64,000 nucleotides of DNA from Gemmatimonadota bacterium (GTDB taxonomy: Bacteria > Gemmatimonadota > Gemmatimonadetes > Longimicrobiales > RSA9). A program made the position numbers and the translations under genes. Each line of letters starts with the position of its first letter. Position 1 is the first letter of the stretch. Under the pieces are notes generated by a model. The model made no database searches. It was given only the letters and a program-made list of their open reading frames with translations, and was not told the origin of the DNA. This document shows, piece by piece, positions 38,951 through 55,342 of the stretch. The stretch is taken from NCBI GenBank assembly GCA_040905425.1, contig JBBDRO010000100.1, positions 66,953-130,952 on the forward strand, written 5' to 3'.

Positions 38951-39166
38951 CTAGCGGATGATGCCCAGCGGCAGGAGAACCGCGTAGCCGAGCACCAGCA
39001 GCAGCGGCGCGCCGACCGTGGAGCCACCCGCCAGCAGCACGTAGCCGGCCACCACGGCGAGCAGCCCGGCCACGAGCAGTACGGCGTTCACGGTGGAGAA
39101 TTCCAGCGAGCCCCGTTGCTGATCGGGGCGGGTTGGCTTCGCGCGCGTGCCGGTGCGTATATTCAT
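38951..39166 (-). CDS. Small two-TM membrane protein (71 aa), last gene of the che/mgl operon
   Basis: MNIRTGTRAKPTRPDQQRGSLEFSTVNAVLLVAGLLAVVAGYVLLAGGSTVGAPLLLVLGYAVLLPLGIIR. It lies 32 nt after the upstream peptidase gene. The rest of the 348-aa track ORF is antisense artefact. Confidence 0.5.
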   Translation of the reverse strand: MNIRTGTRAKPTRPDQQRGSLEFSTVNAVLLVAGLLAVVAGYVLLAGGSTVGAPLLLVLGYAVLLPLGIIR

Positions 39167-39198
39167 GCGCCGGAAACTGGCGGCGCTACGGGCGGCGG

Positions 39199-40230
39199 TC
39201 AAGGTGGCGGCTGTCCCGAGGGTGGCGGCGGTGGCGGCGGTGGTGGCGCTGTCCCGGGGTCCTCTCCCAACCAGTAGGCGGGTCGATCGGGAAGCTCGCT
39301 GGCGCGCAGGCGCTCCAGCCGCTCGCGGTTGCGGCGCCGCCGCAGGTAGGTGAGCGCCACCACCAGCACGGCCAGGAAGGCCCACAGCACCACGCTCTGC
39401 GCCAGAAAGACCAGCCAGCCGTAGCGGCTCCGCACCCGCTCCAGCCAGAGCCGCTCGAACTGCGTGGAGGAGACAGCGTACGTGGCGCGCATGGCCTGCT
39501 CGAAGGAACCCGTGGCCCGCCAGCGCTCCAGGAACGGTCCGAAGCCGCTCCCCCCGCCCTGCTCCGCCAGGTAGCGGACGGCATCGGCGGCCAGGAGGTA
39601 GGCCACCCGGGCCTGGCTGGTCCCGCGCGGCCAGGCCAGCGTGAGCTCGTCCAGCGACGGGGCGCTGCCGGTCAGGAACGCCACCCTGAGCATCCATCCC
39701 GCCGCCGGATCCAGCTCGCCCGCGGCCCACGTGGCGTACCCCTCGGAGAACCAGCGCGGTACCGCCGCGCGGCCCACCCGACGCTGCAACCCCACGTGCG
39801 CCAGTTCGTGCTTGAGAATGCGGGCCAGCTCGTTCATGGCGGCCGTACGCGGCGCGTGCAGGGGCAGCACGATGCGGCCCTCGAAGGGCAGCGCCACCCC
39901 CGCGCCCCACTCGGGGACCTGGCCGCCGGTCAACGCGTCGAAGGCCGCCTCGTCGGCCACCAGATGGATGTCCACCGTGTCGCCGCCCGGCCACCACCCC
40001 GCGGGGAAGCCGGGCAGCGGCAGGGCGTCCACCGCGCTCGCCAGCAGACGTTCGGCCAGTTCCCGCGCGGCGGCCGGCGCATACATGCGCATGCCGGGCC
40101 CGCGCAGCACGATGGTGGCGTCCTCCTGCCGGGCACCCGGTGCCGCGCGCCCGCCGAGGGGGGCAGCGGCGAAGAGCAGGAGAACGGCCGCGGCAACGAC
40201 CCCCGTGCGGCGCGGACTACGCCTGCGCAC
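39199..40230 (-). CDS. Membrane-anchored HEXXH zinc peptidase (peptidase MA-like) with a poly-Pro C-terminus
   Basis: Signal-like N-terminus, HELAH...WFSEGYA, a TM segment (YGWLVFLAQSVVLWAFLAVLVVALTYL), and a PPPPPPPPPSGQPPP tail. The start overlaps the cheB stop by 14 nt. Confidence 0.65.
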   Translation of the reverse strand: MRRRSPRRTGVVAAAVLLLFAAAPLGGRAAPGARQEDATIVLRGPGMRMYAPAAARELAERLLASAVDALPLPGFPAGWWPGGDTVDIHLVADEAAFDALTGGQVPEWGAGVALPFEGRIVLPLHAPRTAAMNELARILKHELAHVGLQRRVGRAAVPRWFSEGYATWAAGELDPAAGWMLRVAFLTGSAPSLDELTLAWPRGTSQARVAYLLAADAVRYLAEQGGGSGFGPFLERWRATGSFEQAMRATYAVSSTQFERLWLERVRSRYGWLVFLAQSVVLWAFLAVLVVALTYLRRRRNRERLERLRASELPDRPAYWLGEDPGTAPPPPPPPPPSGQPPP

Positions 40231-40867
40231 GGCGGGCCAGGAGCCGCATCCTGGTGACCACGGCGGCGCCCAGTTCGCTCAGCGGCAGGACGAGCTGCGC
40301 GTGCTCCGCGGCGGCGCGCGGCATGCTGCCCATGGTGGCGCTGGCCTCGTCCTGCGCCACGGTCCAGCCCCCCGCCTCCCGGATGGCGCGCATGCCCTCC
40401 GCGCCATCCCTCCCCATGCCCGTCAGCACCACGCCCGCCCCCGCCGGACCGAAGTGGCTCGCCACGGCGTGGAACAACAGGTCGGCCGTGGGGCGTAGGC
40501 CGCCCACGGGGTCCCCGTCGAGCGCCGTGAAGACCACGCCGGCCGCCGTCCTGGCCAGACCCAGATGCGCACCGCCCGGCGCCAGGTAGACGGTGCCGGA
40601 GCGGACAAGTTCTCCCGGCACGGCCTGGCGTACCGGGAGCGGCGTCAGGCCGTTCAGCCGGGCCGTGAGGGAGCGTGTAAAGAAGGCCGGGATGTGCTGG
40701 ATGACGATCACGGCGGCGGGAAAATCACCGGGCAGCTCGGCGATCAGGCGGGCCAGTGCGGAGGGCCCACCGGTGGAGGCGGCCACGGCCACCGCCGCGA
40801 CCGCCGGGGCCGATGCCGCCGGATCGGCATGCGGCGGCGACCCCCGGGTGGACTCAGAGTTCGACAT
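40217..40867 (-). CDS. cheB: Chemotaxis methylesterase CheB, catalytic domain only (no receiver domain)
   Basis: AVAASTGGPSAL, IVIQHIP and LTGMGRDGAEG; 216 aa. The ORF has no room for an N-terminal REC domain. Confidence 0.9.
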   Translation of the reverse strand: MSNSESTRGSPPHADPAASAPAVAAVAVAASTGGPSALARLIAELPGDFPAAVIVIQHIPAFFTRSLTARLNGLTPLPVRQAVPGELVRSGTVYLAPGGAHLGLARTAAGVVFTALDGDPVGGLRPTADLLFHAVASHFGPAGAGVVLTGMGRDGAEGMRAIREAGGWTVAQDEASATMGSMPRAAAEHAQLVLPLSELGAAVVTRMRLLARRAQA

Positions 40868-41345
40868 CGGGCGCTCGCATGGAGCTTACCAGGAGGCGGC
40901 CGTCGGTCGTGTGCAGGAAGACCGAGCGGCCGTAGCCGCCGCCCACGTCCTTGGCCACGAGCGGGATGCGGACAGCATCGAGCGCGCGCGTGGCGGCTGC
41001 CACATTGCGCTGTCCCAGGTTGCGGCGGTGCTCCTCCGCCACCGATTCGAACATGCTGGCCCCGCCAACCAGGCGGGCGCGCAGGCGGCCCGGGGCCGCG
41101 CCAGCCGTACGCATCTGGTCGATCAGGACCTGCACCGCTGTGGCGGCAAAGCGTCCCAGGGGCGTGGGGCGCCGTCCATCGGCGGGATCGGGCAGCATGG
41201 CGTGGGCCATCCCGCCCACACGGGCCTCCGGGTCCCACAGGGTGATGGCCACGCAGGATCCCAGACCCAGCGCACAGAGCACCTCCCCGCTACGCCCCAC
41301 CTTCACCTCGCCGATGCGGACGGGGACGCGAATGGGCCGCGTCAT
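40854..41345 (-). CDS. cheD: Chemoreceptor glutamine deamidase CheD
   Basis: LCALGLGSCVAITLWDPEARVGGMAHAMLP, and a ...GGYGRSVF end; 163 aa. Confidence 0.9.
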   Translation of the reverse strand: MTRPIRVPVRIGEVKVGRSGEVLCALGLGSCVAITLWDPEARVGGMAHAMLPDPADGRRPTPLGRFAATAVQVLIDQMRTAGAAPGRLRARLVGGASMFESVAEEHRRNLGQRNVAAATRALDAVRIPLVAKDVGGGYGRSVFLHTTDGRLLVSSMRAPDVEL

Positions 41346-42259
41346 GTACGGCGGTACACGCGTTCACGCGGGGCCACCGGGCTGAACAGTCCCGTGGCGC
41401 TACCGAAGAGGGCCTCCACCTTCCCCAGCACCAGGAATCCCCCTGGCGCCAGAGCCGCGTGAAGGCGGCGGAAGAGATCCTCCTGCACCCGCCGTTCGAA
41501 GTAGATGATCACGTTCCGGCAGAGGATGAGGTGCTGCTCGCGTGGGAAGGGATCGCGTAGCAGATCCAGCGGCCGGAAACGAACCCTGGCGTGCAGTTGC
41601 TCGTCGACCGTGCGTTGATCAGGGCCGCCGAACCAGCGCCGGCGCCGTCCCGCATCCAGATCACCCATGGCATACTCGGCGTAGGTTCCGGAGGCGGCCG
41701 CGGCCAGCGCACCGCGGTCCACGTCGGTGGCCAGAATGCGGCAACGCTGCGGCTCCAGGCTGCCAGCACTCTCCTCCACGAGCATGGCCAGCGAATAGGC
41801 TTCCTCGCCCGCCGCGGTGCCCGCGCTCCACAGCCGTACCTCGCCCCGGACCACGGCCAGCTCCGGGACCACCGCATCACGCAGGACCTTCCAGACCTCC
41901 GGATTGCGGAGAAACTTGCTCACGTTGATGGTCACGGCGTTCAGGAGCCGCTCGAGTTCCTCCGGCTGGCCCTCGAGCAACCGCTGGTAGGCGGCGTAAT
42001 CGTGCACACCACAGGCACGCATGCGCACGGCCACGCGGCGCCGCATGCAGCGCTCCTTGTAGCTGGCGCACGCCAGGCCGGTGCGGTTCTCCACGTAGCC
42101 CAGGAGGGCACCCAGCTCCGCCACTTCACGCTCGGTCAGCGGACCGTGCGCCAGCGGGAGGATGGCGTTCGGAGCGGCCCGGCGGTCCGCGGGCGGACGG
42201 ACCACGCGGCCCGCCCGCGGGGGCGGCGTGGCGCCGTTGGCGCGCTCCTCAGCCGGCAT
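41342..42259 (-). CDS. cheR: Chemotaxis protein methyltransferase CheR
   Basis: Start at MPAEERANG. The CheR N-domain is followed by a SAM domain (RLWSAGTAAGEEAYSLAMLV, ILCRNVIIYF). Confidence 0.9.
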   Translation of the reverse strand: MPAEERANGATPPPRAGRVVRPPADRRAAPNAILPLAHGPLTEREVAELGALLGYVENRTGLACASYKERCMRRRVAVRMRACGVHDYAAYQRLLEGQPEELERLLNAVTINVSKFLRNPEVWKVLRDAVVPELAVVRGEVRLWSAGTAAGEEAYSLAMLVEESAGSLEPQRCRILATDVDRGALAAAASGTYAEYAMGDLDAGRRRRWFGGPDQRTVDEQLHARVRFRPLDLLRDPFPREQHLILCRNVIIYFERRVQEDLFRRLHAALAPGGFLVLGKVEALFGSATGLFSPVAPRERVYRRT

Positions 42260-43868
42260 GCTCCACGATCTCCAGATTGTTGCGCACCACGCGATTGTGC
42301 GGGTTGAGCTCCAGGGCGCGGGTCCAGTGGCGCACCGCCTCCTCCCGCTGCCGTCCCTTGTAGAGCACATTGCCCATCTTGGCGTGCAGGTCATCCCCCA
42401 GGTCGGGATCCAGCTCGGCGGCGCGCTGATAGTGCTCCAGGGCGTCCTCGTGGAGGCCGCGCCGATAGATCACGTCCCCCAGGTTCTTGTGTGCCTGCGC
42501 CAGGCCGGGCTCTTCCTCTGAAGCGCGCCGATAACAGGCCTCCGCATGATCCAGGTTGCCACGCCGCTCGTGCACCAGCCCAGCCAGGAGGTGGACAGAG
42601 GCGGCATTGGGATGCGCCTCGACCGCCTCACCGGCCAGCGCGGCGGCACGGTCCAGGTCCCCGCCAAGCGCCGCAGCGAGCCCCGCGAAATGGTAGTACT
42701 GGGGAGAGGGCACCGCCGTGCCCAGCCGCCTGCGATACTCGGCATAGGCCTCGGCCGCTTCCGCGGGCCGCAGGGCATGGGTGAGCGTGAGGCCGCGTGC
42801 CAGCGCCACGGTCGGCGTGCCCGCCCGCAGCGTCTCCGCCTCATCCAGCACCAGGAGAGCGTCATCGAAGCGCTCCAGCGCGCGTAGGGAAACGGCCAGA
42901 TTCACGAAGGCGGCGAACTGCGGGCCGTGATCCTCCAGCAGGGACTTGAGCTGCCGCACCGCGGCGCGGTGGCGGCCGTCGCGCATGGCGGACAGCGCCA
43001 GATGGAAGCGGGCGGAGAGATCGTGCGGTTCCAGTTCCAGCACCCGCCCGAACTCACGCTGCGCATCCTCCAGCATGCCTGCGCGGAAGAACGCGGTCCC
43101 CAGGTTGCGGCGCTCCGCCAACTCCGCCGCCTTGCCGCGGCCACCCTCCTTTTCCTTGCGGCGCCCCACCCGATGGCAGAATCCCGCCTGGATGAGGCCG
43201 AAGAGCGCCTGCCCCACGGTGAACTCCACCAGCCCGCTCTCGTCCACCAGATCCTGAACGCTGCGCTCCCCGTCCAGCAGCAGGACAATGCGCTGCTGCT
43301 CCGCGGTGAGTTCCACATCGGAGGTGAGCAAACGCTCACTCTCCACTTCGAAGACCAGATCCAGGGAGGGGATCTTCTTCTCGATCAGGCTCCACTCGTC
43401 CACCCGGCGGGCGGCCTCCAGCAGGAGACTCTCCGGATTGATGGACACCAGGATGTCCGCCGAGTCGGGCTGCTCCCCCACCTCGAAGTAGAAGCTGCCG
43501 CGCGACCAGGTGAAGAGATGGTAGATGGCCTCTTCGATCTGCAGCCGGACGTAGCGCTCCAGATCCGCGCTGGTGATGTGGCCCTGCTCCACGAGCAGCT
43601 CTCCCACGCGGCGGTCAGGCTGCTGTGTCTGCAGCGCCAGTACCGCCTCGAGCTGCTCCTGCGTGAGGACGTCGTCGCGCACCAGGAGATCACCCAGGCG
43701 GTCCCGTCGGTTCACGACCTGTGCATACGTGATGCGGCCGGCTTCGAAGTAGATCTGACCGAAGCGCGAGCGATCCGTAACGGAAAGGCAACCGGTCTTC
43801 TGACCGAGCGCCAGGAGCTGGCACACGTCGGCCAGACTGGCCTCCTTCAGACTCCCCTTGATGGCCAT
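42249..43868 (-). CDS. PATAN (DUF4388) domain protein with a helical insertion and C-terminal TPR repeats (paralogue 2)
   Basis: Start at MAIKGSLKEASLADVCQLLALGQKTGCLSV. It has an inserted LGDLLVRDDVLTQEQLEAVLALQ / VGELLVEQGHITSADLERY repeat, then TPRs (VLELEPHDLSARFHLA, AAELDPDLGDDLHAKMG, ALELNPHN). Confidence 0.75.
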   Translation of the reverse strand: MAIKGSLKEASLADVCQLLALGQKTGCLSVTDRSRFGQIYFEAGRITYAQVVNRRDRLGDLLVRDDVLTQEQLEAVLALQTQQPDRRVGELLVEQGHITSADLERYVRLQIEEAIYHLFTWSRGSFYFEVGEQPDSADILVSINPESLLLEAARRVDEWSLIEKKIPSLDLVFEVESERLLTSDVELTAEQQRIVLLLDGERSVQDLVDESGLVEFTVGQALFGLIQAGFCHRVGRRKEKEGGRGKAAELAERRNLGTAFFRAGMLEDAQREFGRVLELEPHDLSARFHLALSAMRDGRHRAAVRQLKSLLEDHGPQFAAFVNLAVSLRALERFDDALLVLDEAETLRAGTPTVALARGLTLTHALRPAEAAEAYAEYRRRLGTAVPSPQYYHFAGLAAALGGDLDRAAALAGEAVEAHPNAASVHLLAGLVHERRGNLDHAEACYRRASEEEPGLAQAHKNLGDVIYRRGLHEDALEHYQRAAELDPDLGDDLHAKMGNVLYKGRQREEAVRHWTRALELNPHNRVVRNNLEIVEHAG

Positions 43869-43890: not shown

Positions 43891-45675
43891 TCATTCGCCC
43901 TCCTCCAGCGGTACGTCCTGATGGCCGGGCCAGTCCCAGAGCGCCTTTTCACGGCTCGTGAACCAGTGGTCCAGCGCCCCCCCCCGCCCCACCAGGGCGC
44001 CAGCTTCCCGCGGCGCGGGATCGGCGATGGGACGCAGACCCGCTGGCGCGGCCACCGGCTCCGTCCCGGAGGCCTCCTCATCCACGCTGCCGGAGGCGGT
44101 GAGTTCCACCACCAGCCCGGTCTCGAGGCGCCCACGGAGCCGATCCTCCAGGCCGTCGATCAAAGCCGGCGGGCCGGCGGCGCTGAAGAGCAGACGGGCC
44201 CCCGCACGACGTAGATGGTCGAAGAGGTGGAAGAGCTCCTCCTGGGCGCCCTCGGTGTCCGCCAACTCGTCCACGTCGGGCATGACCAGTACCCCCACCC
44301 GGCGCAGCCGGGCGCGCCAGGCCTCTACACCGTCGTGACCGAGCGCGTCCACCAGTTCGGAAGCAAATTCACGGCCTGGCAGCCAGGCCACGGTGAGCCC
44401 CTTCTGCAATTCCGCGATCTCGCGTGCCACGGCGGCCAGCACACGCTCGGCCAGTTCCCGGTCCCCGTGCAGGAAGTAGGGCACGTACCGGTCTCCGGTC
44501 CCCTGGGCCACCGCCGCACCGGCGCGCACGGCAAGATGGTTGGCGGGCAACGGCAACTCGGCCAACGTGGGCCCGGGTGGCGGCCGGGGCACGGGACGGG
44601 TGCGCGCCTGCACGGCCACCAGCAGTCCTTCCGCCTCCGTCACCCGCGCCGGGTCGCGCAGCACGTCGGTGCGCTCCAGCTCCGGGGCGTCACCCTCCGC
44701 TTCACGAATGAGGCGGGCCACGGTGCGCAGCCGCTCCACGCGTGACGCGAACCCCGTCAGGAACGCCTCCACCGCGGCCTCGGCCGGCGGGCTCGCCAAC
44801 GCCTCCTCAAGCAGGCGGGTGCGGAAGCCCTCCCCCTCCCAGCGGAGGATGGCCTCGGCCAGTTTGGCCTCGCTGCCGCCCGGCGAGACCACCTGACCGA
44901 TCGTGCCGGTGATCTCCGTCAGGAAGGCGCCGAACTCGTCGGGACCGCGCCGGTCCAGGGCCAGGCCGAGGAGACGACCCGCCTCCTCCATGCTCACCTG
45001 GCGGCCCTCCAGTTCCTGGATGGCCAGGATCCGGTTGAGTGCGCCCTGCAGCTCCCGCACGTTCGCGAAGGCGCCGCGCGCCAGGGCCTCCGTCACCCCA
45101 TCGCCGAGGGCCTGCCCGCGCTCCTCCGCCTTGCGGCGCACGATGGCCGCGCGGGTCTCCATGTCAGGCGGTGCCAGATCCGCTATAAGCCCCCCGGAGA
45201 AGCGGCTGAGGAGCCGATCGTCCAGTTCGTCGATCTCCGTGGGCGGACGGTCGCTGGCCAGCACCACCTGCCCGCCGCGCGACGCCATGCCGTCCCACGC
45301 CCGCAGCAACTCCTCCTGAACGGCTCGCCGTCCCGCCAGGAACTGGATATCGTCGAGCAGGAGGAGATCCGCGGCGTGGATCCGCTCCCGGAAGGCATCG
45401 CGCTGCCCGGACCGGATGGCACTCATCACGCCCTCCACCAGATGCTCCATGGTGTCGTAGGTGATGCGCAGGTCCGGATGGATGGTGCGCGTATGCTGCC
45501 CGATGGCCATGACCAGGTGCGTCTTGCCCAGCCCCGAGGCACTGTAGAGGAAGAGCGGGTTGTAGGCGGAGCCGGGCGTGTCGGCAACGCGCCGCGCTGC
45601 CGCAGCCGCGAGACGATTGGACGTCCCGACAATGAAGCTCTCGAAGGTGAGACGAGGGTCCAGCTCCAGCGACAT
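43891..45675 (-). CDS. DnaA-domain-III (Hda-like) AAA+ ATPase, internally duplicated, lacking DnaA domains I, II and IV
   Basis: The N-half aligns by eye to DnaA domain III: LDPRLTFESFIVGTSNRLAAAAARRVAD, Walker A SASGLGKTH, Walker B LLLLDDIQF, box VII DRLLSRF, sensor 2 NVRELQGALNRI. Residues around 395-560 repeat the same order with the P-loop lost. No DnaA signature or HTH is present. Confidence 0.85.
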   Translation of the reverse strand: MSLELDPRLTFESFIVGTSNRLAAAAARRVADTPGSAYNPLFLYSASGLGKTHLVMAIGQHTRTIHPDLRITYDTMEHLVEGVMSAIRSGQRDAFRERIHAADLLLLDDIQFLAGRRAVQEELLRAWDGMASRGGQVVLASDRPPTEIDELDDRLLSRFSGGLIADLAPPDMETRAAIVRRKAEERGQALGDGVTEALARGAFANVRELQGALNRILAIQELEGRQVSMEEAGRLLGLALDRRGPDEFGAFLTEITGTIGQVVSPGGSEAKLAEAILRWEGEGFRTRLLEEALASPPAEAAVEAFLTGFASRVERLRTVARLIREAEGDAPELERTDVLRDPARVTEAEGLLVAVQARTRPVPRPPPGPTLAELPLPANHLAVRAGAAVAQGTGDRYVPYFLHGDRELAERVLAAVAREIAELQKGLTVAWLPGREFASELVDALGHDGVEAWRARLRRVGVLVMPDVDELADTEGAQEELFHLFDHLRRAGARLLFSAAGPPALIDGLEDRLRGRLETGLVVELTASGSVDEEASGTEPVAAPAGLRPIADPAPREAGALVGRGGALDHWFTSREKALWDWPGHQDVPLEEGE

Positions 45676-45682
45676 TGCTCTC

Positions 45683-46312
45683 CTAGGTAGTGGCTGCGCC
45701 CGTCGGCGGCGCTTCGATCTTCTGACGGAAGCGGCGCGACAGGCTCTGCAACGTGAGCTGGCTGACCGCCTTCAGGGTGTCGAAGACGCCGTCCCCGGTG
45801 AGCGCCGCGGCCGGGAACGCCGGTACGTCACGAAAGTTCAACGTGTCATCCAGGTCGGCCACGCTCATGATCCCCGGCAGGTCCCGCTTGTTGTACTGCA
45901 GGACCATGGGGAAGTCTTCCAGCTCCACGTTTTCCTCCAGGAGATTCTCGTGGAGATTGCGCAGACTGTCCACGTTCTCCTCCATCTTCTCCCGCTGCGA
46001 ATCGGCCACGAAGACCACGCCGTCGGCCCCGCGCAGTACCAGCTTGCGGGTGGCGTTGTAGTACACCTGACCGGGCACCGTGTACAGTTGTACGCGCGTC
46101 CGGAACCCTGAGATCGTGCCCAGGTCGAGCGGCAGGAAATCGAAGAAGAGCGTGCGGTCTGTCTCCGTGGCCAGGGAGACCATGGGTCCCTTCCGCTCGT
46201 CCGGCACGTACGCGTGCACGTACTGGAGGTTGCTCGTCTTGCCGGACCGCCCCGGCCCGTAATAGACAATCTTGCAGGTGATCTCACGGGTGGAATAATT
46301 GACCAGGGACAT
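45683..46312 (-). CDS. mglA: Ras-like small GTPase MglA
   Basis: MSLVNYSTREITCKIVYYGPGRSGKTSNLQY...TETDRTLFFDFLP...LYTVPGQVYY...QYNKRDLP. It is near-collinear with Myxococcus MglA as I recall it, including the intrinsic Arg and Gln positions. Confidence 0.93.
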   Translation of the reverse strand: MSLVNYSTREITCKIVYYGPGRSGKTSNLQYVHAYVPDERKGPMVSLATETDRTLFFDFLPLDLGTISGFRTRVQLYTVPGQVYYNATRKLVLRGADGVVFVADSQREKMEENVDSLRNLHENLLEENVELEDFPMVLQYNKRDLPGIMSVADLDDTLNFRDVPAFPAAALTGDGVFDTLKAVSQLTLQSLSRRFRQKIEAPPTGAATT

Positions 46313-46342: not shown

Positions 46343-46828
46343 TCAATCCGGGTCCGACTCGAAGACCCGCTGGATCCCCGCTTCGAGATCTCGCTCGAAA
46401 CTGGCCTGATCCGTGGATCCCAGGTCGGCGCCGAATATGGGCAATGCGGCCAGGTCGGCCGCCAGACGGTCGAAGAAGAACTGTACCAGACCGAGCGTGG
46501 AGCCGCCGTCGAAGATCGTCACCACGATCAATTCCTCTACCGGAGTCTTCACGGGTGCCAGGAAGAGCTGCCGCTCCCTGCCCGCATGGTAGAGATGGGT
46601 CCACCGCCCCGCGCCCGAAATCTCGGCGAGCATACGGGAGGAGGCGTGTGCCGCCGCGGCCAGCGATGCCACGTTCACCACTTCGTAGCTGCTGGCAAAC
46701 CCGTGCTGCGCCAGCACCTGCCCCGAGTGGTTCACCAGCAGCGCCAGGCGGACCCGCGCCTCGCGTACGAAGCCATGCATGGGCTCGCGCACCGCACCCA
46801 TGATGGCGGGCAGTTCGTCACTTCTCAT
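46343..46828 (-). CDS. mglB: Roadblock/LC7 protein MglB (MglA GAP family) with an acidic tail
   Basis: ALLVNHSGQVLAQHG...VVTIFDGGSTLGLVQFFFDRLAADL parallels MglB VVIFDNRTSLGLVRLRIKKASDEL. The gene order mglB-mglA matches Myxococcus. Confidence 0.85.
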   Translation of the reverse strand: MRSDELPAIMGAVREPMHGFVREARVRLALLVNHSGQVLAQHGFASSYEVVNVASLAAAAHASSRMLAEISGAGRWTHLYHAGRERQLFLAPVKTPVEELIVVTIFDGGSTLGLVQFFFDRLAADLAALPIFGADLGSTDQASFERDLEAGIQRVFESDPD

Positions 46829-47175: not shown

Positions 47176-48155
47176 GCGTAGCTCTCCAGGAAGCGGCTGG
47201 CCAGTTCGCGCGCCCGCGCGGCCCCGCGCATCACCCATCCCACGGGCGCATCGCGCCGGGCCGCCAGGACCACCACGGTATCACCCGGAGCCGGCGCCAG
47301 GTGCAGCAGGGCCACCTCCGTGTGCAGCAGGATGCCCTCCCATGCGCCCAGGCTCAGGTGCTCGGCCGTGCGAGCCGCTTCCTCCACGGCGTCGCCCAGA
47401 CCGGCGCCCAGCCCTTCCGCCGAGGCATCGGCCGGCTCCCGCAGCGTGCCCGCCAGGATGAGGCCCTGCGCATCCAGCAGCAGCGCGCCGAGCACCGGCC
47501 CGCGCATCACGGCGTCGAAGAGGCGCGTGGGGTCCTCGGCCAGGACCGCCGCGTGCGCCGCGTGCGCCGCGTGCGCCGCCTCCGCCGCCTCCACCGCCGC
47601 CGCGTCGACGGGCGGAGACGGCCGCGGGGCGGGAGCCACCTCGGCCGCCGCGGCCCCGGAGGGATGGCCGTCGGCGCCATGGCCCGCGGTCGTGGTGCCA
47701 CCGAACGGATCCGGCGCGGCCTTGACCTTGCGCGCCTCCTGACGCTGCCGCAGCAACTGCAGCGCCTCCCGCACCGCGGGATCGGCCGGCCGGGTCAGCG
47801 CGGCCGCTTCCAGATGCTGCCGCGAACGCTCCAACTCGCCCGTCTCAAGGTAACAGAAACCAAGACCGCGCAGCGCATCGAAGTTGCCGGGGTCCAGGCG
47901 CAGCACCATGGACCACTCGTCCGCGGCGCGCTCCCGATCCCCCGCTTCCAGGTAGAGCAGCGCCAGCAGCCCGTGACCCTCCACGTTCATGGGGTGCGCT
48001 TCCAACCCGCGCAGGCAGAGATTGAGTGCGGCGTCGCGCTGCCCCTGGCGCCGGTAGGCGCGGGCCAGCGGCAGGAACGCCAGCGAGCCGGGGTCACTGG
48101 CCACCTCCTGGCTCCAGCGTTGCAGATCCGCCGTCACGGGTCGCGTCATTGCCAC
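47172..48155 (-). CDS. TPR (N-terminal) plus Roadblock/LC7 (C-terminal) fusion protein
   Basis: N-terminal TPRs (LARAYRRQGQRDAALNLCLRGLEAHPMN, VLRLDPGNFDALRGLGFCY) and an Ala/His-rich linker. The C-terminal VLGALLLDAQGLILAGTL...VVVLAARRDAPVGWV is Roadblock-like. Confidence 0.7.
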   Translation of the reverse strand: MAMTRPVTADLQRWSQEVASDPGSLAFLPLARAYRRQGQRDAALNLCLRGLEAHPMNVEGHGLLALLYLEAGDRERAADEWSMVLRLDPGNFDALRGLGFCYLETGELERSRQHLEAAALTRPADPAVREALQLLRQRQEARKVKAAPDPFGGTTTAGHGADGHPSGAAAAEVAPAPRPSPPVDAAAVEAAEAAHAAHAAHAAVLAEDPTRLFDAVMRGPVLGALLLDAQGLILAGTLREPADASAEGLGAGLGDAVEEAARTAEHLSLGAWEGILLHTEVALLHLAPAPGDTVVVLAARRDAPVGWVMRGAARARELASRFLESYA

Positions 48156-48180: not shown

Positions 48181-49305
48181 TCATCGGGCCCCGCTCTCGA
48201 CCACCCGCGTCAGCACGCGCAGGGCGGCCAACCCCTCATCCACGACCTTCCGCTCATCACCATCGGGCATCAGGCGCAGGTAGGTGTCCCATGCGCGCGC
48301 GCCGCGCTCCAGGTCCCCGGTGCGCACGGCCGAGAAGCCCAGGCGGAAGTGCCCTTCGGTGGAGAGCGGATCCAGCCCCACGGCCCGTGCGTAAGCCTCC
48401 GTTGCCGCGCGCATGCGCCGCTGCGCCTCCAGGGCCCGACCCGCCAGCAGGGCAATCTCCGCGTGCTCGGGGTATGCGGTCTCGAGTTCCGCGGCCAGTT
48501 TCTGCGCCTCCTCCACACGGCCGTCGGCCAGGTGTTGCTCGGCCCGCGCCATGGCCTCCCGGAGCTCACCTTCCGGTACGTGGCTGCGCTGCTCCTGCAC
48601 CTGCAGCACACCCGTGCTCACCAGTCCGTAGATCGTCTTGGCCACGTCGAACGCGCTGCGTCCCAGGTCCGCCGCGATCTGCCGGATATCCCGGTGCGCG
48701 TCGATTTCCGCGAGCACCTCCCACTCCTCCGTGCGCAGGTCGAGCGGCGCCGCCTCGCGCTCGGCGGCCGGGGCCAGCACCGGCACCGCCTCGGGACCGG
48801 GCACCTTGGATTCCAGCCGCGTCCATTCATCGATCCGCCGGGCACCCTCCATGAGCAGCGACTCCACCCGCACCTGGGCCAGCAGGCGGCCCTGACCGAT
48901 GCCGGCACGCTCCTCGAAGCGGAAGTACCCCTCGTCCCAGCCCATCAGTTCGTAGACGGTCTCCTCCATCTGGAAGCGGAGTTGCCGCTCCAGTTCTTCC
49001 TCCGTGATGCTCCCCATCTCCAGGAGGATCTCGGCCAGTCGGCGCGTGGGGTCGGTGCGCTGCAGTTCGAGCGCGCGATCCAACTCCCGCTGCGTGAGTC
49101 GACCGGCCCGGATGAGCAGCTGCCCCAGCCGCCGCGGCGAGCGCCGCCGTACCGCGAACACGATGGCGCCCCGACTGAAGTGGACGATGGCCTCGTCGTT
49201 CAAACGATCCGAGCGAACCGTCAGCACGCCGGTCTTGTGCGCCAGTTCGAGGAGCTGGAGCACGTCCTGGATGCTGAGTTCCTCGAGGGGCCCCTCGATG
49301 GCCAC
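48181..49305 (-). CDS. PATAN (DUF4388) domain protein with a helical insertion and C-terminal TPR repeats (paralogue 1)
   Basis: GTG start at VAIEGPLEELSIQDVLQLLELAHKTGVLTV. The insertion is LGQLLIRAGRLTQRELDRALELQ / LAEILLEMGSITEEELERQ, followed by TPRs. The upstream 96 aa of the track ORF overlap the TPR gene. Confidence 0.75.
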   Translation of the reverse strand: MAIEGPLEELSIQDVLQLLELAHKTGVLTVRSDRLNDEAIVHFSRGAIVFAVRRRSPRRLGQLLIRAGRLTQRELDRALELQRTDPTRRLAEILLEMGSITEEELERQLRFQMEETVYELMGWDEGYFRFEERAGIGQGRLLAQVRVESLLMEGARRIDEWTRLESKVPGPEAVPVLAPAAEREAAPLDLRTEEWEVLAEIDAHRDIRQIAADLGRSAFDVAKTIYGLVSTGVLQVQEQRSHVPEGELREAMARAEQHLADGRVEEAQKLAAELETAYPEHAEIALLAGRALEAQRRMRAATEAYARAVGLDPLSTEGHFRLGFSAVRTGDLERGARAWDTYLRLMPDGDERKVVDEGLAALRVLTRVVESGAR

Positions 49306-49318
49306 GCGCCCTCCCCGC

Positions 49319-52012
49319 CTACGTGGCCGCGACCGGCGCCGCGCCCGGCGCCGCGCTCTGGAGCCGCTCCAGCGCAGCGCTGGCGTCCGCGTTGCCGGGG
49401 TCGAAGCCGAGGGCGCGCCGATAGGCCACGCGCGCCTTGCCGTGCATGCCGGCATCCTCCAGCACCGCCCCCAGGCGAACCAGACCCTGGAGGTGGTAGG
49501 GATCCACCGTGAGGAGATCCACCAAGGCGGCGATGGCCTCGCGGTGGTGCCCGCGCCCGCGCTCGACCTCCGCCAGCCCGAGCGCGGCCTCACCGTAGCT
49601 GGGCAGGACCGCCAGCGCCACGCGGTACTCCGCCGCCGCCGCCGCCGCGTCCCCCCGCCGCGTCAGCACCCGTGCCAGAGCCGTGCGCGCCGCCGGCGCG
49701 TCCCCGCCACGCTCCAGAGCGTCACGCAACGCCCGCTCGGCGCGGGCCGTTTCGCCGGCCTCCAGGGCGGCGCGACCGAGCTGCGTGAGCAGGCCGGGAT
49801 TGGCCGGTCCGGTGTCCACGGCCTCCTCCAGGACCAGCATGGCCCGGCCGTGGTCGCCCACCTGGGTCAGTCCCTCCGCCAGCGTGCGCAGCGCCACCAC
49901 GTCACCCGGGAACAGCTCGGTGAGTCGCTCGGCCGCCTCCACCGCTTCCCGCGGCCTGTCGAGCTGGAGCAGCGAGCGGGCGGCGCCGAGCAACGCCCTG
50001 CCGAGGGCGGCCTCGCCCTCGTCGTCCTCGTCGCTCGCCGTACCACCTCGCGCCACCTCGGCCAGGGCGGCCTCGAAACGCTCCACCGCCTCACCCGCCG
50101 CGCCGCGGCGCAGGAAAGCCTCACCCTGCAGAAGGAGGCCCTGCACCCGGGGGCCGCCCTCCTGGATCATGTGCAGGGCCTCACGCTGCACCGCCTCCAG
50201 GTCTCCCCGGTCGAGCGCGGCCTGCGCCGCGGCCAGCCGGCTCCGGCCGCCCGCGGGGGAAGCGGCCTGGCCCGAACCCTCCCGGGCAAAGACCGAATCC
50301 AGCTCGCCCGCATCAGGCACGAAGGCCTCGATGGGCTGCCCGGGGCGGACCTCCTCCGCCGCGTCCAGCTCGGGCGCCAGCACGCTCGTCTCCTCGTACT
50401 GCAGGTCGATGAGCAGCCGGTGGCGCGCGGGGGGGATGAAGGGGCTCTTCTCCAGGGCGTGCCGGGTCTCCCGCAGCGCACCCTCGTAGTCCCCCAGTGC
50501 GGACAGGGCGAACGCCAGGTTGTAGCGTGCCTCGGCCAGGTCGGGGTCGAGCTCTACCGCGCGTACGAGAGCATCGCGCGCTCCGGAGGCATCGCCACCC
50601 TCCATGAGCGCGGCGCCCAGCCCGGCCCAGGCGGGGGCGGCGCCGTCATCGGCCTGCAGGGCCACGCGAAAGGTCTCGACCGCCTCGCCATGGCGGCCGG
50701 CGCGTTGCAGCAGGAGCGCCAGGTTGCGGGCCACGTCGGCCGTGGCCCGTCCGCCCTCGAGTGCTCGCCGCAGCAGTTGCTCGGCCGGCTGCGGCCGCCC
50801 CTGGTGCAGCTCCGCGACGGCCAGGTTGTTCAGGACCAGGACGTAACTACCGTCCAGTTCGAGCCCGCGCCGGTAGGCGGCCGCGGCACCGTCCAGATCC
50901 CCCTGCTGGTGCCGCGCCACGCCAAGCTCGTTCCACAGCTTGGGAGAATCAGCCTGCTGCCGCGTGAGCGCCTCGTAGAGACTGACGGCTTCCGCGTCCC
51001 CCCGCAGCAGCAGCATCTCCGCCTGGGCCTGCTGCACCAGTTGAGCGTCCTCCCCCCTTTCCGTGGCCAGGCGGAACTCCCGCAGCGCCTCGTCGAAAAG
51101 CGCCTTCTGCCGGAAGGCAATGCCCAGATTGTAGTGGGCCAGCGCCGCGTTCTCGGCCACGGCGGGTCCCTCGCCACGCTCGCCCACCAGCTCCTGATAC
51201 CGGGCGTTGCTGTGGCTGTCCAGGGACAGATTGGTCTCGGCGCGGGACAGTGACGGGTTGAGCTCGGACGCACGGGCCGCAGCGCTGCCCGCCTGTTCCT
51301 CCATGCCCAGGTCACCGTAAACGAAGGCCAGGAGGTGATGCGCCTCCGCCAGCGACGGCTGGAGCTGGACCGCCATCTCCAGCGGTCCCCGCGCCTCGGC
51401 GCTTCGTCCCTGCTGGTACTTCACCTCCCCCATGAGGAGGTGTGCGCGGGCGTTCGAAGCGTCCAGCGCCGCCGCGTTGCCCAGCGCCACCAGCGCCTCG
51501 TCCGGACTGCCCCGCCGCAGCTCGGCGCGCGCCAGCATGAGGTAGACGGCGGCGTCGCGCGGACGACCCGTCTGGACGGCACGCCACTCACGCACCGCCG
51601 CCTCGGCGTCCCCCGAATGGTAGTAGGCGCGCGCGAGCCGCTCCCGGGCCACGAGGTCATCGGCGTCGCGAGCCAGCGCGGCGCGGGCATCGGCCACCAG
51701 CCGCTCGAAGTAGCCGGTGCCGAAGAAGACGATGCGCAGATTGCGCTCCGCCACCTGCATGCGGGGATCCAGTTCGAGGGCGCGCTCGAACTGTTCCGCG
51801 GCATCCCCGAAGAGTCCCTTGTGATAGTAGACCACGCCCAGGTTGTTGTGGGCGTTCGGGTCATCCTGCTTGATACGGCGGGCCAGGCCGCGGAGCAACT
51901 CGGCGTCCCGCTCCGAACGCGGCTGTGCGCCCTGGGGCCGGCTGCGCGGACCGTCGCCTCGATCCCGCCAGGGAAGCGTGGGCTGCTGCGGCTCGGGCCG
52001 GGGCGTACTCAC
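49319..52012 (-). CDS. Large TPR-repeat protein (897 aa)
   Basis: About 20 TPR-like units throughout (NNLGVVYYHKGLFGDAAEQFERALELDP, YNLGIAFRQKALFDEALREF, WNELGVARHQQGDLDGAAAAYRRGLELD). The GTG start overlaps the cheC stop (GTGA). Confidence 0.8.
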   Translation of the reverse strand: MSTPRPEPQQPTLPWRDRGDGPRSRPQGAQPRSERDAELLRGLARRIKQDDPNAHNNLGVVYYHKGLFGDAAEQFERALELDPRMQVAERNLRIVFFGTGYFERLVADARAALARDADDLVARERLARAYYHSGDAEAAVREWRAVQTGRPRDAAVYLMLARAELRRGSPDEALVALGNAAALDASNARAHLLMGEVKYQQGRSAEARGPLEMAVQLQPSLAEAHHLLAFVYGDLGMEEQAGSAAARASELNPSLSRAETNLSLDSHSNARYQELVGERGEGPAVAENAALAHYNLGIAFRQKALFDEALREFRLATERGEDAQLVQQAQAEMLLLRGDAEAVSLYEALTRQQADSPKLWNELGVARHQQGDLDGAAAAYRRGLELDGSYVLVLNNLAVAELHQGRPQPAEQLLRRALEGGRATADVARNLALLLQRAGRHGEAVETFRVALQADDGAAPAWAGLGAALMEGGDASGARDALVRAVELDPDLAEARYNLAFALSALGDYEGALRETRHALEKSPFIPPARHRLLIDLQYEETSVLAPELDAAEEVRPGQPIEAFVPDAGELDSVFAREGSGQAASPAGGRSRLAAAQAALDRGDLEAVQREALHMIQEGGPRVQGLLLQGEAFLRRGAAGEAVERFEAALAEVARGGTASDEDDEGEAALGRALLGAARSLLQLDRPREAVEAAERLTELFPGDVVALRTLAEGLTQVGDHGRAMLVLEEAVDTGPANPGLLTQLGRAALEAGETARAERALRDALERGGDAPAARTALARVLTRRGDAAAAAAEYRVALAVLPSYGEAALGLAEVERGRGHHREAIAALVDLLTVDPYHLQGLVRLGAVLEDAGMHGKARVAYRRALGFDPGNADASAALERLQSAAPGAAPVAAT

Positions 52013-52626
52013 ACGAGCCTCAGCGCCCGGAGCATGGCCTCCAGCGACGCGTCATCCGGAATGAGCAGGAAGTGGGCGCCCATCTCCGTTTTACCGTCCA
52101 GCATGAGGTCCGTATTCATGACGAAGACAAAGTCCTGGTCCGCACCGAAATTCACATAGCTGGTGGACAGCACCGCGCCCACCATGTCCATGGCAAAGGA
52201 GGGCACGGACATGATGAGCAGCATGCCCATGAACTCGGAGAGCGCGTTCAGGTAGGCGCCCACGATGATGTTGCCCACCTCTTCCAGGATGGACTGCTCG
52301 GCCGGTCCGAGATCACGTGGGAACTCCAGGCCCTTGCGGCCTCCCATGATCTCCACCAGTACGGCGGCGGTGCCAGCGGGGAAAAGCTGGAGGGTTCGTC
52401 CGGTGACGTCCCCCAGGACCTTCATCACCACGGCGGAGACGGGCTCCTGGGGGTCGCCCATGGCCGAGGAAACATCCTCGAGTGCCACTACCTTCACCTC
52501 GGGCACTGACACGGTGATGGCCCGCGTGGTCATGTCCGACAACGCCGTGGCCGCGTGCCCCGCGCCGATATTGGCGATCTCGCGGAGCGCGGAGTACTGG
52601 ATCTCGGTGAGGCCGCGCACGTCCAT
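52009..52626 (-). CDS. cheC: CheC-family CheY-P phosphatase
   Basis: Two CheC repeats: SALREIANIGAGHAATALS and ILEEVGNIIVGAYLNALS (the D/S-X3-E-X2-N-X22-P type context); 205 aa. Confidence 0.85.
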   Translation of the reverse strand: MDVRGLTEIQYSALREIANIGAGHAATALSDMTTRAITVSVPEVKVVALEDVSSAMGDPQEPVSAVVMKVLGDVTGRTLQLFPAGTAAVLVEIMGGRKGLEFPRDLGPAEQSILEEVGNIIVGAYLNALSEFMGMLLIMSVPSFAMDMVGAVLSTSYVNFGADQDFVFVMNTDLMLDGKTEMGAHFLLIPDDASLEAMLRALRLV

Positions 52627-52630
52627 TCGA

Positions 52631-54442
52631 TCAGCTCACACTCAGGGGGTCCAGCACCAGGGCGGGCCTGCCATCCGCCAGCAGCGTGGCGCCGGAGAAG
52701 AGCGGCAGCGCCCCCACGCCCGGATGGAAGGCCTTCACGAGGATCTGCTCGCGGCGTACGATCTCGTCCACGCCCAACGCAAAGCGACGTTCGCCCGACT
52801 CGGCCACCACCGCCGCCCGCTCGCCCCCCTCCGGATCCACCCCCAGGACGGCGCGCATGCGGATGAGCCGGACCGGCTCGTCACGCAGTACGAGCCATTC
52901 CCCCGTGCCGTCCACGCGCACCGAAGTGAGGGCAAAATCCACCGCCTCCGATACGTGCGTGAGCGGCACGGCGTAGATCTCCTGGCCCACCCGCACCTGC
53001 AGGGCGGGCGCCACGGCCAGCGTGAGCGGCAGCCGCATCACGAAGTCGGTGCCCTGCCCCGTCCGGGTCCGCATGTCGATAGCGCCGCCGAGCGCGCGCA
53101 CACGGTTCACCACCGCGTCCAGCCCCACCCCACGGCCTGAGACCTCCGTCACCGCGGCGGCCGTGGAGAAGCCGGGGTGGCTGAGGATCCGAAAGAGCTC
53201 GTCGTCTTCCAGCACGCCGTCGAAATCGGCGGGCAGGATGCCACGCTCCTGTGCGCGTTCCACCACCGTCTCCTGATGCACGCCGCCGCCATCGTCCTGC
53301 AGGGTGATCCGCACGCTCGTGCGCTCGCGCTCGGCGGCCAGGCGGATCTGCCCGCGGGGAACCTTGCCAGCGGCACGGCGCGCCTCGTTGCCCTCCAGGC
53401 CGTGGTCTACGGCGTTGCGCAGGAGATGGACGATGGGATCCACGATCTCGTCGAGGATGGCACGGTCGAGTTCGATGTCCTGCCCCTCCATGACCAGTTC
53501 CACGTCCTTGCCGAGCGAGCGGGCCGCGTCCCGCACCACGCGGGGGAAGCGCTGGAAAACGTCGGCCACCGGGACCATGCGCATCGAGAGCACTGCGTGC
53601 TGCAGCTCGGACGCCACGGTACTGATGCGGGAAGCGACGTCCCCCATCCCGTTCACGGCGGCTACGTCCAGCTCTCCGGCATACTCCGCCAGCCGGCCCT
53701 GCAGCACGGCCAGTTCCGCCACGCGCTCGGCCACCTCGTCGAGGCGCCGCTGATCCACGCGCACCTGGGTAGCGGTGGCCCGAGCCGGACCGGACCGCCC
53801 GGCCGCCTGCGAGTCCCCCCGCTCGACCGTGGCGCTGGCCACCTCCCCCGCCGCGCGCAGCGCCACCGTGACGGCCTCCGCGTCGGCATCCTCCTCGAGC
53901 AGAACCAGAAAACGTCCGTCGAAGGCCTCGTCGAACTCCGCGGGTAGCGTACCTACGACTCCTCCCACCGCGCGCGCCGCGACCACCGCGAGCAGCGCGC
54001 GCGCGGCTTTGATGGGCGCGTCCTCTTCCAGGCGCACGCGCACGGCGGGCACGCCGGCCGGGCGGGCCGGTCCGGCACGGTCCCGCCCCGCGGTCCCCGC
54101 GGGTGCGGCCGCGGCGGCCACGTCGGGTGACGGATCCAGCGCGGCGGCCTGGAGCCGGTCGGCCGCGGCCAGCAAGGCGTCCACGAGTTCCGGGTCCACC
54201 TCCAGCGTGCCAGCACGCACCGCGTCCAAGCGGTCCTCGAGCGCGTGTGCCTGCTCGGTCACCAGGGTGTAGCCCATGCTCGCGGCCATCCCCTTCAGGG
54301 TGTGGGCGGCACGGAACGCCGCGGCCACCGCCTGGCGCGCCTCCTCCCCGCCCGCTTCCAGGGCCAGGATGCTCTGGGTCAGCCGCTGCAGATGCTCTTC
54401 GGCCTCGGCTGCGTAGAGGGCGCGGAAGCGGTCGACATCCAT
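52631..54442 (-). CDS. cheA: Chemotaxis histidine kinase CheA
   Basis: Start at MDVDRFRALYAAEAEEHL. Hpt domain AAHTLKGMAASMG, then a dimerisation/HATPase region (HLLRNAVDHGLE, DDGGG, GRGVGLDAV) and a C-terminal CheW-like domain. Confidence 0.93.
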   Translation of the reverse strand: MDVDRFRALYAAEAEEHLQRLTQSILALEAGGEEARQAVAAAFRAAHTLKGMAASMGYTLVTEQAHALEDRLDAVRAGTLEVDPELVDALLAAADRLQAAALDPSPDVAAAAAPAGTAGRDRAGPARPAGVPAVRVRLEEDAPIKAARALLAVVAARAVGGVVGTLPAEFDEAFDGRFLVLLEEDADAEAVTVALRAAGEVASATVERGDSQAAGRSGPARATATQVRVDQRRLDEVAERVAELAVLQGRLAEYAGELDVAAVNGMGDVASRISTVASELQHAVLSMRMVPVADVFQRFPRVVRDAARSLGKDVELVMEGQDIELDRAILDEIVDPIVHLLRNAVDHGLEGNEARRAAGKVPRGQIRLAAERERTSVRITLQDDGGGVHQETVVERAQERGILPADFDGVLEDDELFRILSHPGFSTAAAVTEVSGRGVGLDAVVNRVRALGGAIDMRTRTGQGTDFVMRLPLTLAVAPALQVRVGQEIYAVPLTHVSEAVDFALTSVRVDGTGEWLVLRDEPVRLIRMRAVLGVDPEGGERAAVVAESGERRFALGVDEIVRREQILVKAFHPGVGALPLFSGATLLADGRPALVLDPLSVS

Positions 54443-54452
54443 GGAGGTCGGT

Positions 54453-54815
54453 TCAGCCCAGCACGCGCTGTACGGCTTCGAGCACGCGGGAAGGCTGGAA
54501 CGGTTTGACCACGAAGTCGCGCGCCCCCGCCTGGATAGCTTCGATGACCAGCGCCTGCTGTCCCATGGCGCTGCACATGAGGATACGGGCTTTGGGGAAC
54601 TCCTTGACGATCGCGCGCACGGCATCGATACCGCCCATGTCCGGCATCACGATGTCCATGGTGACCAGATCCGGTTTCAACTCGCGGTATTGTTCCACCG
54701 CCTCGGAGCCGGTCTGCGCTTCACCGACCACCTCGAAGCCCGCCTGCTTCAGGATCTCTCCCAGCATGGTGCGCATGAAGAGTGCGTCATCGCAGATCAG
54801 AACGGTTCGTGCCAT
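54453..54815 (-). CDS. cheY: Chemotaxis response regulator CheY (stand-alone receiver)
   Basis: MARTVLICDDALFMR...DLVTMDIVMPDMGG...FVVKPF; 120 aa. Confidence 0.93.
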   Translation of the reverse strand: MARTVLICDDALFMRTMLGEILKQAGFEVVGEAQTGSEAVEQYRELKPDLVTMDIVMPDMGGIDAVRAIVKEFPKARILMCSAMGQQALVIEAIQAGARDFVVKPFQPSRVLEAVQRVLG

Positions 54816-54849
54816 GGTTCCTCGATGGGATGGTTCGTGCGGCGGCGCC

Positions 54850-55342
54850 TCATGCGGCCAGCAGCCGTTCGATGAGCGCATCGGGGTTCAGCAGCAGCGC
54901 GCGGTGCCCGGCCAGTTCCGCCACGCCCAGGACGTCCCCGGGTTCGAGCCCCATGCCGCGGAGTTCGTCCTCGTCGAGCGCCGCCCAGTCGGCGGCGCCC
55001 GGCGCCCCCCGGAGCCATCCGGAGCACTTCCTCCACGGCCAGAGCCAGCGGGCGCTCGCCGTCGTCCACGAAGACGAGCCGGTGCCCCGGCCGCGCGGCG
55101 GCCGGCCGTAGGCGCAGCACCACGCCCAGGTCACAGACGGTGACTACGAGGCCGCGCAGCCCTACCAGCCCGCACACTTCCGGACCGCAGCCGGGCAGCC
55201 GCGTGACCGGCCGCGGCGTGGTGATCTCGCGCACCCGGTCGAGCGGCAAGCCAAGCCGGTGGCCGTCACACGTGAGCAGCACCCAGCGCGGTAGCGGGGC
55301 CGTGGTCGATCCCCCGTCGGACGTGACCGCCGTGCTCTCCAT
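54850..55342 (-). CDS. cheW: CheW coupling protein, apparently frameshifted at a G6 run (C6 on the plus strand, 55005-55010)
   Basis: The N-part is in the frame of track ORF 54797..55342 (WVLLTCDGHRLGLPLDRVREI...PLALAVEEVLRMAPGG). The C-part is in the frame of ORF 54850..55134 (APGAADWAALDEDELRGMGLEPGDVLGVAELAGHRALLLNPDALIERLLAA). Removing one G restores a CheW of about 164 aa. Confidence 0.75.

Follow-up and report, generated by a model that had tools for sequence, protein, structure and literature searches.

What does a chemosensory pathway act on when its genes are wrapped around those of a small GTPase? The question is raised by a ~16-kb run of 17 codirectional genes (55342 to 38951, minus strand) in a stretch of 64,000 nucleotides (the window, positions 66,953 to 130,952 of contig JBBDRO010000100.1, GenBank assembly GCA_040905425.1; 72% G+C), which comes from a metagenome-assembled genome (MAG) of the Longimicrobiales, phylum Gemmatimonadota (4.12 Mb, 115 contigs, 96.7% complete). 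In this candidate operon, the genes of a Che pathway form two blocks, cheWYAC before and cheRDB after, that bracket a module comprising the Ras-like GTPase MglA, three Roadblock regulators, proteins with tetratricopeptide repeat (TPR) and PATAN domains, and a tandem ATPase derived from DnaA; this bracketing, already noticed in a first-pass annotation made from the sequence alone, is confirmed here. The reading to which we lean, with modest confidence, is that the Che core signals through the MglA/Roadblock/PATAN-TPR module to polarize type IVa pili. Gene order, conservation, and the fact that genomes in which searches for flagellar genes came up empty keep the operon as their one Che system argue for the CheY-to-MglA link, while the pilus output and the role of the ATPase are suggested by operon anatomy and conservation.

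The operon CheA and CheW are the sole CheA and CheW of the source genome (G000), in which searches for flagellin, FlhA, and FliG found none. Five relatives were checked for flagella and CheA count (G040, G125, G136, G103, and G027), and two of them, in which no flagellar genes were found, keep the operon, which holds the sole CheA in G040 and one of two Che systems in G125. Since a Che pathway with intact cheA, cheY, cheC, cheR, cheD, and cheB is kept in genomes without detectable flagellar genes, its output there should be nonflagellar, and the sole conserved candidates for such an output are the products encoded between the two che halves. Given that relatives without flagella have kept the operon, what it controls is probably surface movement by pili. 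Precedents exist for the individual parts: in Synechocystis, pilus direction is set by PATAN domains, which bind PilB1 and PilC (bioRxiv 10.1101/2021.06.11.447907), the Frz pathway of Myxococcus xanthus acts on MglA/MglB (PMC3441718), and MglA acts on type IVa pili through its TPR effector SgmX (PMC7519303, PMC7668184). The first-pass annotation had called the output of the locus unknown; the source genome, however, has a PilB-PilT-PilC cluster (PilB 732 bits, above the cut-off), which, together with the PATAN binding to PilB/PilC in Synechocystis, provides a candidate output.

The arrangement recurs well beyond the source genome. When 20 loci around the DnaA-like paralogue were compared with the window proteins, the same order was observed in 17 of them, spread over five families of the class Gemmatimonadetes (f1, f3, f4, f5, and f8), namely rluD-cheW-cheY-cheA-cheC-TPR897-PATAN1-(TPR-Rbl-Rbl-mglB)-mglA-DnaA-like-PATAN2-(cheR)-cheD-cheB-...-peptidase, where Rbl denotes a Roadblock/LC7 protein. 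Most of the proteins are 35 to 55% identical across loci, with MglA at 56 to 81% and CheY, the best conserved of the cluster, at 77 to 88%, and because the order is kept across families whose proteins are just 35 to 55% identical, it reflects more than chance. The operon has probably been inherited vertically in the class Gemmatimonadetes. We further surveyed a census of one genome per genus (~36,000 genera), in which a threshold of at least 100 bits gave 5118 MglA carriers. A CheW gene no more than 10 kb away from MglA was found for fewer than 3 of 75 carriers in the 20-39% score band, 3 of 150 in the 40-59% band, and 30 of 75 in the 60+% band, with 3 of 300 at random places; about half of the 60+% band is Gemmatimonadota, and the counts are what is expected if the link is limited to Gemmatimonadota, which is not proof of it.

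All 17 genes lie on the minus strand, with starts picked by domain boundaries and ribosome-binding sites, and the domain identities proposed in the first-pass annotation are each borne out by Pfam. The first che block consists of cheW (54797..55342; a frameshifted open reading frame [ORF] matching Pfam CheW at model positions 2-90 of 138 only), cheY (54453..54815; a single-domain response regulator of 120 amino acids [aa], Pfam REC), cheA (52631..54442; Hpt, P2, dimerization, HATPase, and CheW domains, all five found by Pfam, with PDB CheA matches and without a fused receiver), and the phosphatase gene cheC (52009..52626; Pfam CheC/CheX). It is followed by genes for an 897-aa all-TPR protein (49319..52012; Pfam TPR families), present in every full locus, and for the first of two proteins that combine PATAN (DUF4388) with TPR (48181..49305; PF14332, 109.6 bits). 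The Roadblock set comprises a TPR protein with a C-terminal Roadblock/LC7 domain (47172..48155), for which the Pfam match is weak (19.6 bits) and hhalign to a Roadblock profile gives 95.8% probability (E 6.9e-9), a stand-alone Roadblock/LC7 protein of 116 aa (46825..47175; Pfam, and a profile score of 52 bits against PDB Roadblock chains), and mglB (46343..46828), encoding the Roadblock-type MglA regulator (Pfam; 38 bits to M. xanthus MglB, 6h5b). Next come mglA (45683..46312), the gene for the 594-aa tandem AAA+ protein (43891..45675; two Bac_DnaA stretches in Pfam), and that for the second PATAN-TPR protein (42249..43868; PF14332, 134.8 bits), which always directly follows the DnaA-like gene. 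The second che block, with every member assigned by Pfam, contains the methyltransferase gene cheR (41342..42259), the deamidase gene cheD (40854..41345), and the methylesterase gene cheB (40217..40867). The run ends with a membrane-anchored Peptidase_MA_2 protein (39199..40230; Pfam, HELAH motif, two hydrophobic segments, and a Pro-rich tail), kept at the cluster end in relatives, and a 71-aa protein with two transmembrane segments (38951..39166), for which tblastn gave matches in five relatives' loci (L015, L016, L018, L031, and L048).

The gene order, overlaps, and gap limit given in the first-pass annotation were reproduced from the start and stop positions. Seven junctions overlap (cheC/TPR, TPR-Rbl/Rbl, Rbl/mglB, and cheR/cheD by 4 nt, PATAN2/cheR by 11 nt, and cheD/cheB and cheB/peptidase by 14 nt each), and eight others have gaps of 10, 4, 13, 25, 30, 7, 22, and 32 nt. 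The largest gap, 34 nt, separates cheW from cheY when the frameshift-corrected cheW end is used, while the ORF as read overlaps cheY by 19 nt. We infer a single transcript for the 17 genes; the seven sequencing runs that carry window positions 45401-55400 are all metagenome DNA (six from sediment and one from soil), with no RNA run among them. A sigma-70-like promoter candidate, TTGACC-18-TATCTT (55375..55404, minus strand), lies just upstream of cheW in the 199-nt rluD-cheW spacer; it is a consensus match alone, with 2 such sites seen versus 0.7 ± 0.8 expected. Terminator-like matches are at chance level (6 versus 4.1 ± 2.0 expected) and every one of them is intragenic, and a terminator sought 3' of the final gene was not supported, since 38800-38960 folds no better than shuffled sequences do (z -0.79). 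Two further ORFs on the downstream side, 38828-38403 (141 aa) and 38406-37069 (445 aa), were considered as operon members and rejected, having no Pfam match and no counterpart in relatives' loci; the first (38403-38828, minus strand), Arg/Ala-rich, is probably not a gene.

With respect to the Che core, the operon CheY scores 168 bits to Thermotoga maritima CheY (1tmy), and this match, together with the presence of CheC and CheD, is an indirect sign of an F1-like core and not a Frz- or Chp-like one. The first-pass annotation had cited Frz as background; the Che core appears nearer to the flagellar F1 type. Both adaptation enzymes, CheR and CheB, are present according to Pfam; the CheB of the source genome lacks a receiver domain, while most relatives have a REC-CheB. 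The source genome has one methyl-accepting chemotaxis protein (MCP) of TM-HAMP-MCPsignal layout with two transmembrane segments, which is unlinked to the operon and lies on contig C52 between his genes and an ABC transporter; no MCP gene was found inside the clusters of relatives either. A search of the cluster proteins for a FliM-like CheY-binding peptide gave no match.

On its sequence, the operon MglA is a Group 1 small GTPase, as this group is defined in PMC4316618. It scores 258 bits to M. xanthus MglA, and its P-loop, R53-T54, and T78-V-P-G-Q82 are invariant in 16 orthologues. TVPGQ replaces DxxGQ as the G3 motif, and the intrinsic arginine finger R53, beside the G2 threonine, aligns with that of M. 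xanthus MglA. In the window, mglB lies 30 nt upstream of mglA. A second mglB-mglA pair occurs elsewhere in the source genome, in the order ybaB-recR-mglB-mglA-pgsA (contig C65:21467-22669; L041:7468-8670), and its MglA outscores the operon copy in the match to M. xanthus MglA (301 versus 258 bits). Both paralogues are present in most genomes of the class, and since this second, more canonical mglBA pair exists, the operon MglA can be regarded as a dedicated paralogue.

The least expected component is the tandem ATPase, which the first-pass annotation could map to no described system; we likewise found none in the literature searched. Its first domain matches true DnaA far better (E 1e-57) than Hda (E 1e-7), with PDB matches spanning residues 5-236 only, and the model of this domain superposes on domain III of Bacillus subtilis DnaA (8bv3) with a TM-score of 0.94 and a root mean square deviation of 1.5 Å at 42% identity. 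Walker A and B, sensor I, the box VII arginine, and sensor II of domain 1 are invariant in 16 orthologues. It is followed by a helical linker (~248-360), then by the second AAA+ domain (380-525), and, past a disordered stretch, by a conserved tail with the motif REKxVWxWP..R..EE.R; the Walker A of the second domain is lost in the source genome and one relative, whereas other families have GxGKT/S. Neither DnaA domain I nor domain IV was detected, as there was no Bac_DnaA_C match and Pfam gave just PF00308, AAA, and IstB. The protein thus shares with the DnaA/Hda AAA+ family the domain III fold and, in domain 1, all nucleotide-binding and arginine-finger motifs, and differs from DnaA in that domain I and the DNA-binding domain IV are missing, two copies of domain III are joined by a helical linker, a W-x-W-P...EE.R tail is added, and the gene belongs to a signaling operon.

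The DnaA-like ATPase is confined to the class Gemmatimonadetes. A genuine DnaA-type match is found elsewhere in the source genome (contig C19), and among 200 sampled phylum genomes, most of those belonging to the class carry the paralogue in addition to a true DnaA. One unpublished genome (G157) is counted in this tally as well as in those for the second mglBA pair and PilT, and no specific claim depends on it. In the census, the DnaA-like N-domain at the 60+% band is limited to Gemmatimonadetes (27 genera), with MglA within 5 kb in 24 of the 27; the corresponding counts in the other bands are 0/75, 0/123, and fewer than 3/75. Atlas clusters of DnaA/Hda proteins of 590 to 660 aa are mostly Gemmatimonadota, and a contig search with the DnaA-like protein returned one locus (L034, labeled as a Spirochaetes MAG), which is uninformative because the match covered the AAA+ domain only and no other cluster gene was present.

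In relatives, the mglA stop overlaps the start of the DnaA-like gene, and PATAN2 starts 2 to 10 nt past the DnaA-like stop; judged by these junctions, the DnaA-like gene is translationally coupled to both neighbors. Two f2 genomes (L017/G116 and L018/G159) have a reduced locus, rluD-DnaA-like-PATAN2-peptidase-REC, with no che or mgl genes adjoining; the ATPase, PATAN2, and the peptidase may therefore constitute a core that can stand apart from the rest. Coupled to mglA and PATAN2 and kept with PATAN2 after the loss of che and mgl, the ATPase would most simply be an ATP-dependent oligomeric partner of both. A complex prediction for MglA and the DnaA-like protein scored 0.44, with the best control at 0.01, contacts agreeing by at least 41% between runs, and a partner predicted local distance difference test value of at least 74. 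Of 80 solved complexes, 58 reached the mark used for such scores, as did 2 of 110 mismatched pairs; 7 of the 80 solved complexes and both passing mismatches score 0.60 or less, counts that hold roughly, as our own alignments were used. The modeled contact lends weak support to a direct interaction. A fuller version of this idea, which we put forward as speculative and rather doubtful, is that a duplicated DnaA descendant without its DNA-binding domain came to serve a Ras-like GTPase as a nucleotide-driven partner, binding MglA and PATAN-TPR 2, with the W-x-W-P...EE.R tail docking on a TPR domain. If true, the DnaA-derived partner would be an ATP-dependent oligomeric scaffold or timer for a chemosensory pathway, and it might connect the identity of a pole with the chromosome or with the neighboring division genes.

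Taken as one device, the system might work as follows. The single transmembrane MCP, encoded away from the operon, would serve as receptor, with signaling and adaptation carried out by CheW/CheA, the F1-type CheY, the CheC phosphatase, and CheR/CheD/CheB. Phosphorylated CheY would act on the Roadblock set (MglB, Rbl, and TPR-Rbl) and/or the PATAN-TPR proteins and thereby alter the nucleotide state or location of the dedicated MglA paralogue. MglA-GTP, with the 897-aa TPR protein and the PATAN-TPR proteins, would then set where the type IVa pilus motor (PilB/PilT/PilC) works, the outcome being surface movement with a chemotactic bias, and the tandem DnaA-derived ATPase would act as an ATP-dependent oligomerizing partner of MglA and PATAN-TPR 2.

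Several observations weigh against such a device. The PilB-PilT-PilC cluster is located away from the operon, in or beside which no pilus gene is found. Of 201 sampled phylum genomes, 194 have PilT, lineages without the operon included, and being near-universal, it does not allow a phylogenetic profile to single out pili; operon carriers have 2 to 6 PilT copies versus 0 to 2 in lineages without the operon, a comparison that is confounded by relatedness. Gemmatimonas-like genomes have the cluster without the three Roadblock genes (including mglB) and without cheR, so these parts are dispensable. CheC and CheD are typical of flagellar F1 systems, and the operon CheY is nearly as close to the flagellar CheY of T. 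maritima as a nonflagellar CheY could be. In G027, which belongs to the family of the source genome and is flagellated, the operon holds the only CheA, and its Che core may serve the flagellum. The apparent frameshift in the cheW of the source genome might mean that the pathway is impaired there.

A rival explanation posits two separate systems that are only cotranscribed: an ordinary F1-type flagellar Che core and a TPR/PATAN/Roadblock/MglBA/DnaA-like block whose insertion between cheC and cheR brought nothing more than coregulation, for example as two motility modules, with no CheY-MglA signaling. The CheY match, the CheC and CheD genes, and the flagellated G027 without any other CheA can all be claimed by this explanation, as can the f2 genomes, where DnaA-like-PATAN2-peptidase is kept without adjoining che or mgl genes and the blocks are therefore separable. 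We nevertheless consider it unlikely, because the intact che set is also kept in the source genome, G040, and G125, where none of flagellin, FlhA, and FliG was found, because the interleaved order has outlasted divergence to 35 to 55% identity, and because flagellated relatives can carry further CheAs: G136 and G103 have three each, and in G136 one of them lies ~7 kb from a flagellin gene.

Another possibility is that the device concerns the cell cycle or division, with the MglA module and the DnaA-derived ATPase marking poles or addressing the replication or division machinery in place of a motility organelle, and with the Che input tuning growth polarity or division. The ATPase domain is, as noted, far nearer to true DnaA than to Hda, and the division-gene neighborhood pointed out in the first-pass annotation is confirmed and also conserved: the dcw cluster (mraZ, ftsI, mur genes, and ftsA) is codirectional with the operon and begins 3 to 4 kb downstream of it in six relatives from three families, with ~10 kb of other genes in between in the window. 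Set against this are the missing domains I and IV of the DnaA-like protein, the fact that both flanks (rluD and dcw) are housekeeping genes, whose adjacency may only mirror a stable chromosomal neighborhood, and the known partners of PATAN and Group 1 MglA, which are motility machines; we regard a division device as quite improbable. An assembly chimera or chance juxtaposition deserves practically no credence: although the MAG is in 115 contigs and has one apparent frameshift, in cheW, the synteny survey refutes it, with the same order observed in single- or few-contig genomes of other families (G136, G103, G125, and G040).

A close parallel among described systems is Frz-MglA/MglB of M. xanthus, which likewise joins a Che-type pathway to a Group 1 MglA with a Roadblock-type regulator, and which further resembles the present case in its TPR effectors (compare SgmX), extra Roadblock paralogues (compare MglC), and likely control of type IVa pilus polarity. 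The differences are considerable: the parts that M. xanthus encodes at separate loci are all in one operon here, the CheA has no REC domain, unlike the CheA-receiver hybrid FrzE, a single plain CheY stands in place of FrzZ/FrzX, and the MCP is transmembrane with two such segments, unlike the cytoplasmic FrzCD. In addition, the F1-like core with CheC and CheD, the two PATAN-TPR proteins, and the tandem DnaA-derived ATPase set the operon apart from Frz. Cyanobacterial Tax/Pix systems with PatA-type regulators share with it a Che-like pathway that is encoded together with PATAN proteins. PatA-type proteins, however, are PATAN-REC, whereas those found here are PATAN-TPR with no REC, so that phosphorylation would have to reach PATAN in trans, and in the present operon an MglA/MglB module and an AAA+ protein are placed between the two. 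Archaeal F1-type Che acts on the archaellum via CheF. The likeness there is one of organization, an F1-type CheY coupled by adaptors to a type-IV-pilus-like machine and not to a flagellar switch, with CheF as adaptor in a different domain of life and MglA/PATAN/TPR as proposed adaptors here.

Neighborhoods of MglA and PATAN genes were reportedly noted by Makarova et al. in 2006. Wuichet and Sogaard-Andersen (2014, PMC4316618) tabulate two MglAs of Gemmatimonas aurantiaca in their Table S2, GAU_1409 as PATAN>MglA>-PATAN> and GAU_1115 as MglB>MglA>, and state that the neighborhoods of Group 1 MglA "vary widely"; the two entries are the two MglA paralogues also seen in the source genome. Save for this Table S2 entry, no description of an operon with che, mglBA, and a DnaA-like gene was found in the literature searched. 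The MglA-PATAN part had thus already been tabulated for G. aurantiaca in 2014. That entry does not cover the che genes on either side, the nature of the "-" gene, which is the DnaA-like ATPase, or the conservation throughout the class. Chemosensory control of an MglA polarity module, as proposed here, is in itself known; the tandem ATPase is the one part for which no counterpart has been described.

Years of genetics were needed in Myxococcus to tie chemosensing to the MglA polarity switch, and the connection still runs via unlinked, partly unknown connectors. The present operon, from another phylum, offers a compact parts list of how a Che pathway could drive a small GTPase. It covers input and adaptation as well as CheY, the GTPase with three Roadblock regulators, and adaptors of the TPR and PATAN types, to which the tandem DnaA-derived ATPase is an unexpected extra player; the PATAN-TPR proteins are suggested as the missing bridge to the pilus motor. 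Since the class has cultured members, including Gemmatimonas aurantiaca with a reduced version of the cluster, these questions are directly testable.

Some local peculiarities of the locus remain to be described. Beyond residue ~108, the cheW ORF runs into an Arg-rich nonsense tail, and a frame comparison with relatives places the C terminus that matches their CheW in another frame, ending at 54850-54852; the frameshift is located between 54996 and 55022, in a G-run (CCGGGGGGCGCC). No Logan contig of runs X1-X4 spans 54989-55005, the contigs ending at 54986/54988 and restarting at 55006/55008, and the shift may be either an error of assembly or a genuine lesion. After cheB, family f4 carries a second CheW and a 523-aa TPR protein. 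In family f1, an apparent gap between cheB and the peptidase is accounted for by a longer peptidase ORF: the f1 terminal peptidase (L014:16293-18437) reaches up to 714 aa through an N-terminal extension of ~350 aa, which the 343-aa window version lacks.

Upstream, the operon is preceded by ileS-lspA-rluD, and a 22-nt tandem repeat (55478-55553; 3.4 copies, 90% matches) covers the rluD end and part of the spacer upstream of the promoter-like site, where it may be a binding array. The dcw cluster of the window occupies 14279-29204 and includes mraZ, an ftsI with a PASTA domain, mur ligases, and ftsA, and the genes between it and the operon include those for an M1 peptidase, a class-V aminotransferase, a TPR protein, and a diacylglycerol-kinase-like protein. 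A 656-aa ORF without a Pfam match (9504-11474, minus strand) is found where the G+C content of the window peaks (77%, AT skew 0.18). A response regulator with a receiver and an HD-GYP-type (HD_5) domain is encoded at 4935-6203 (minus strand) and, going by these domains, could be a cyclic di-GMP phosphodiesterase.

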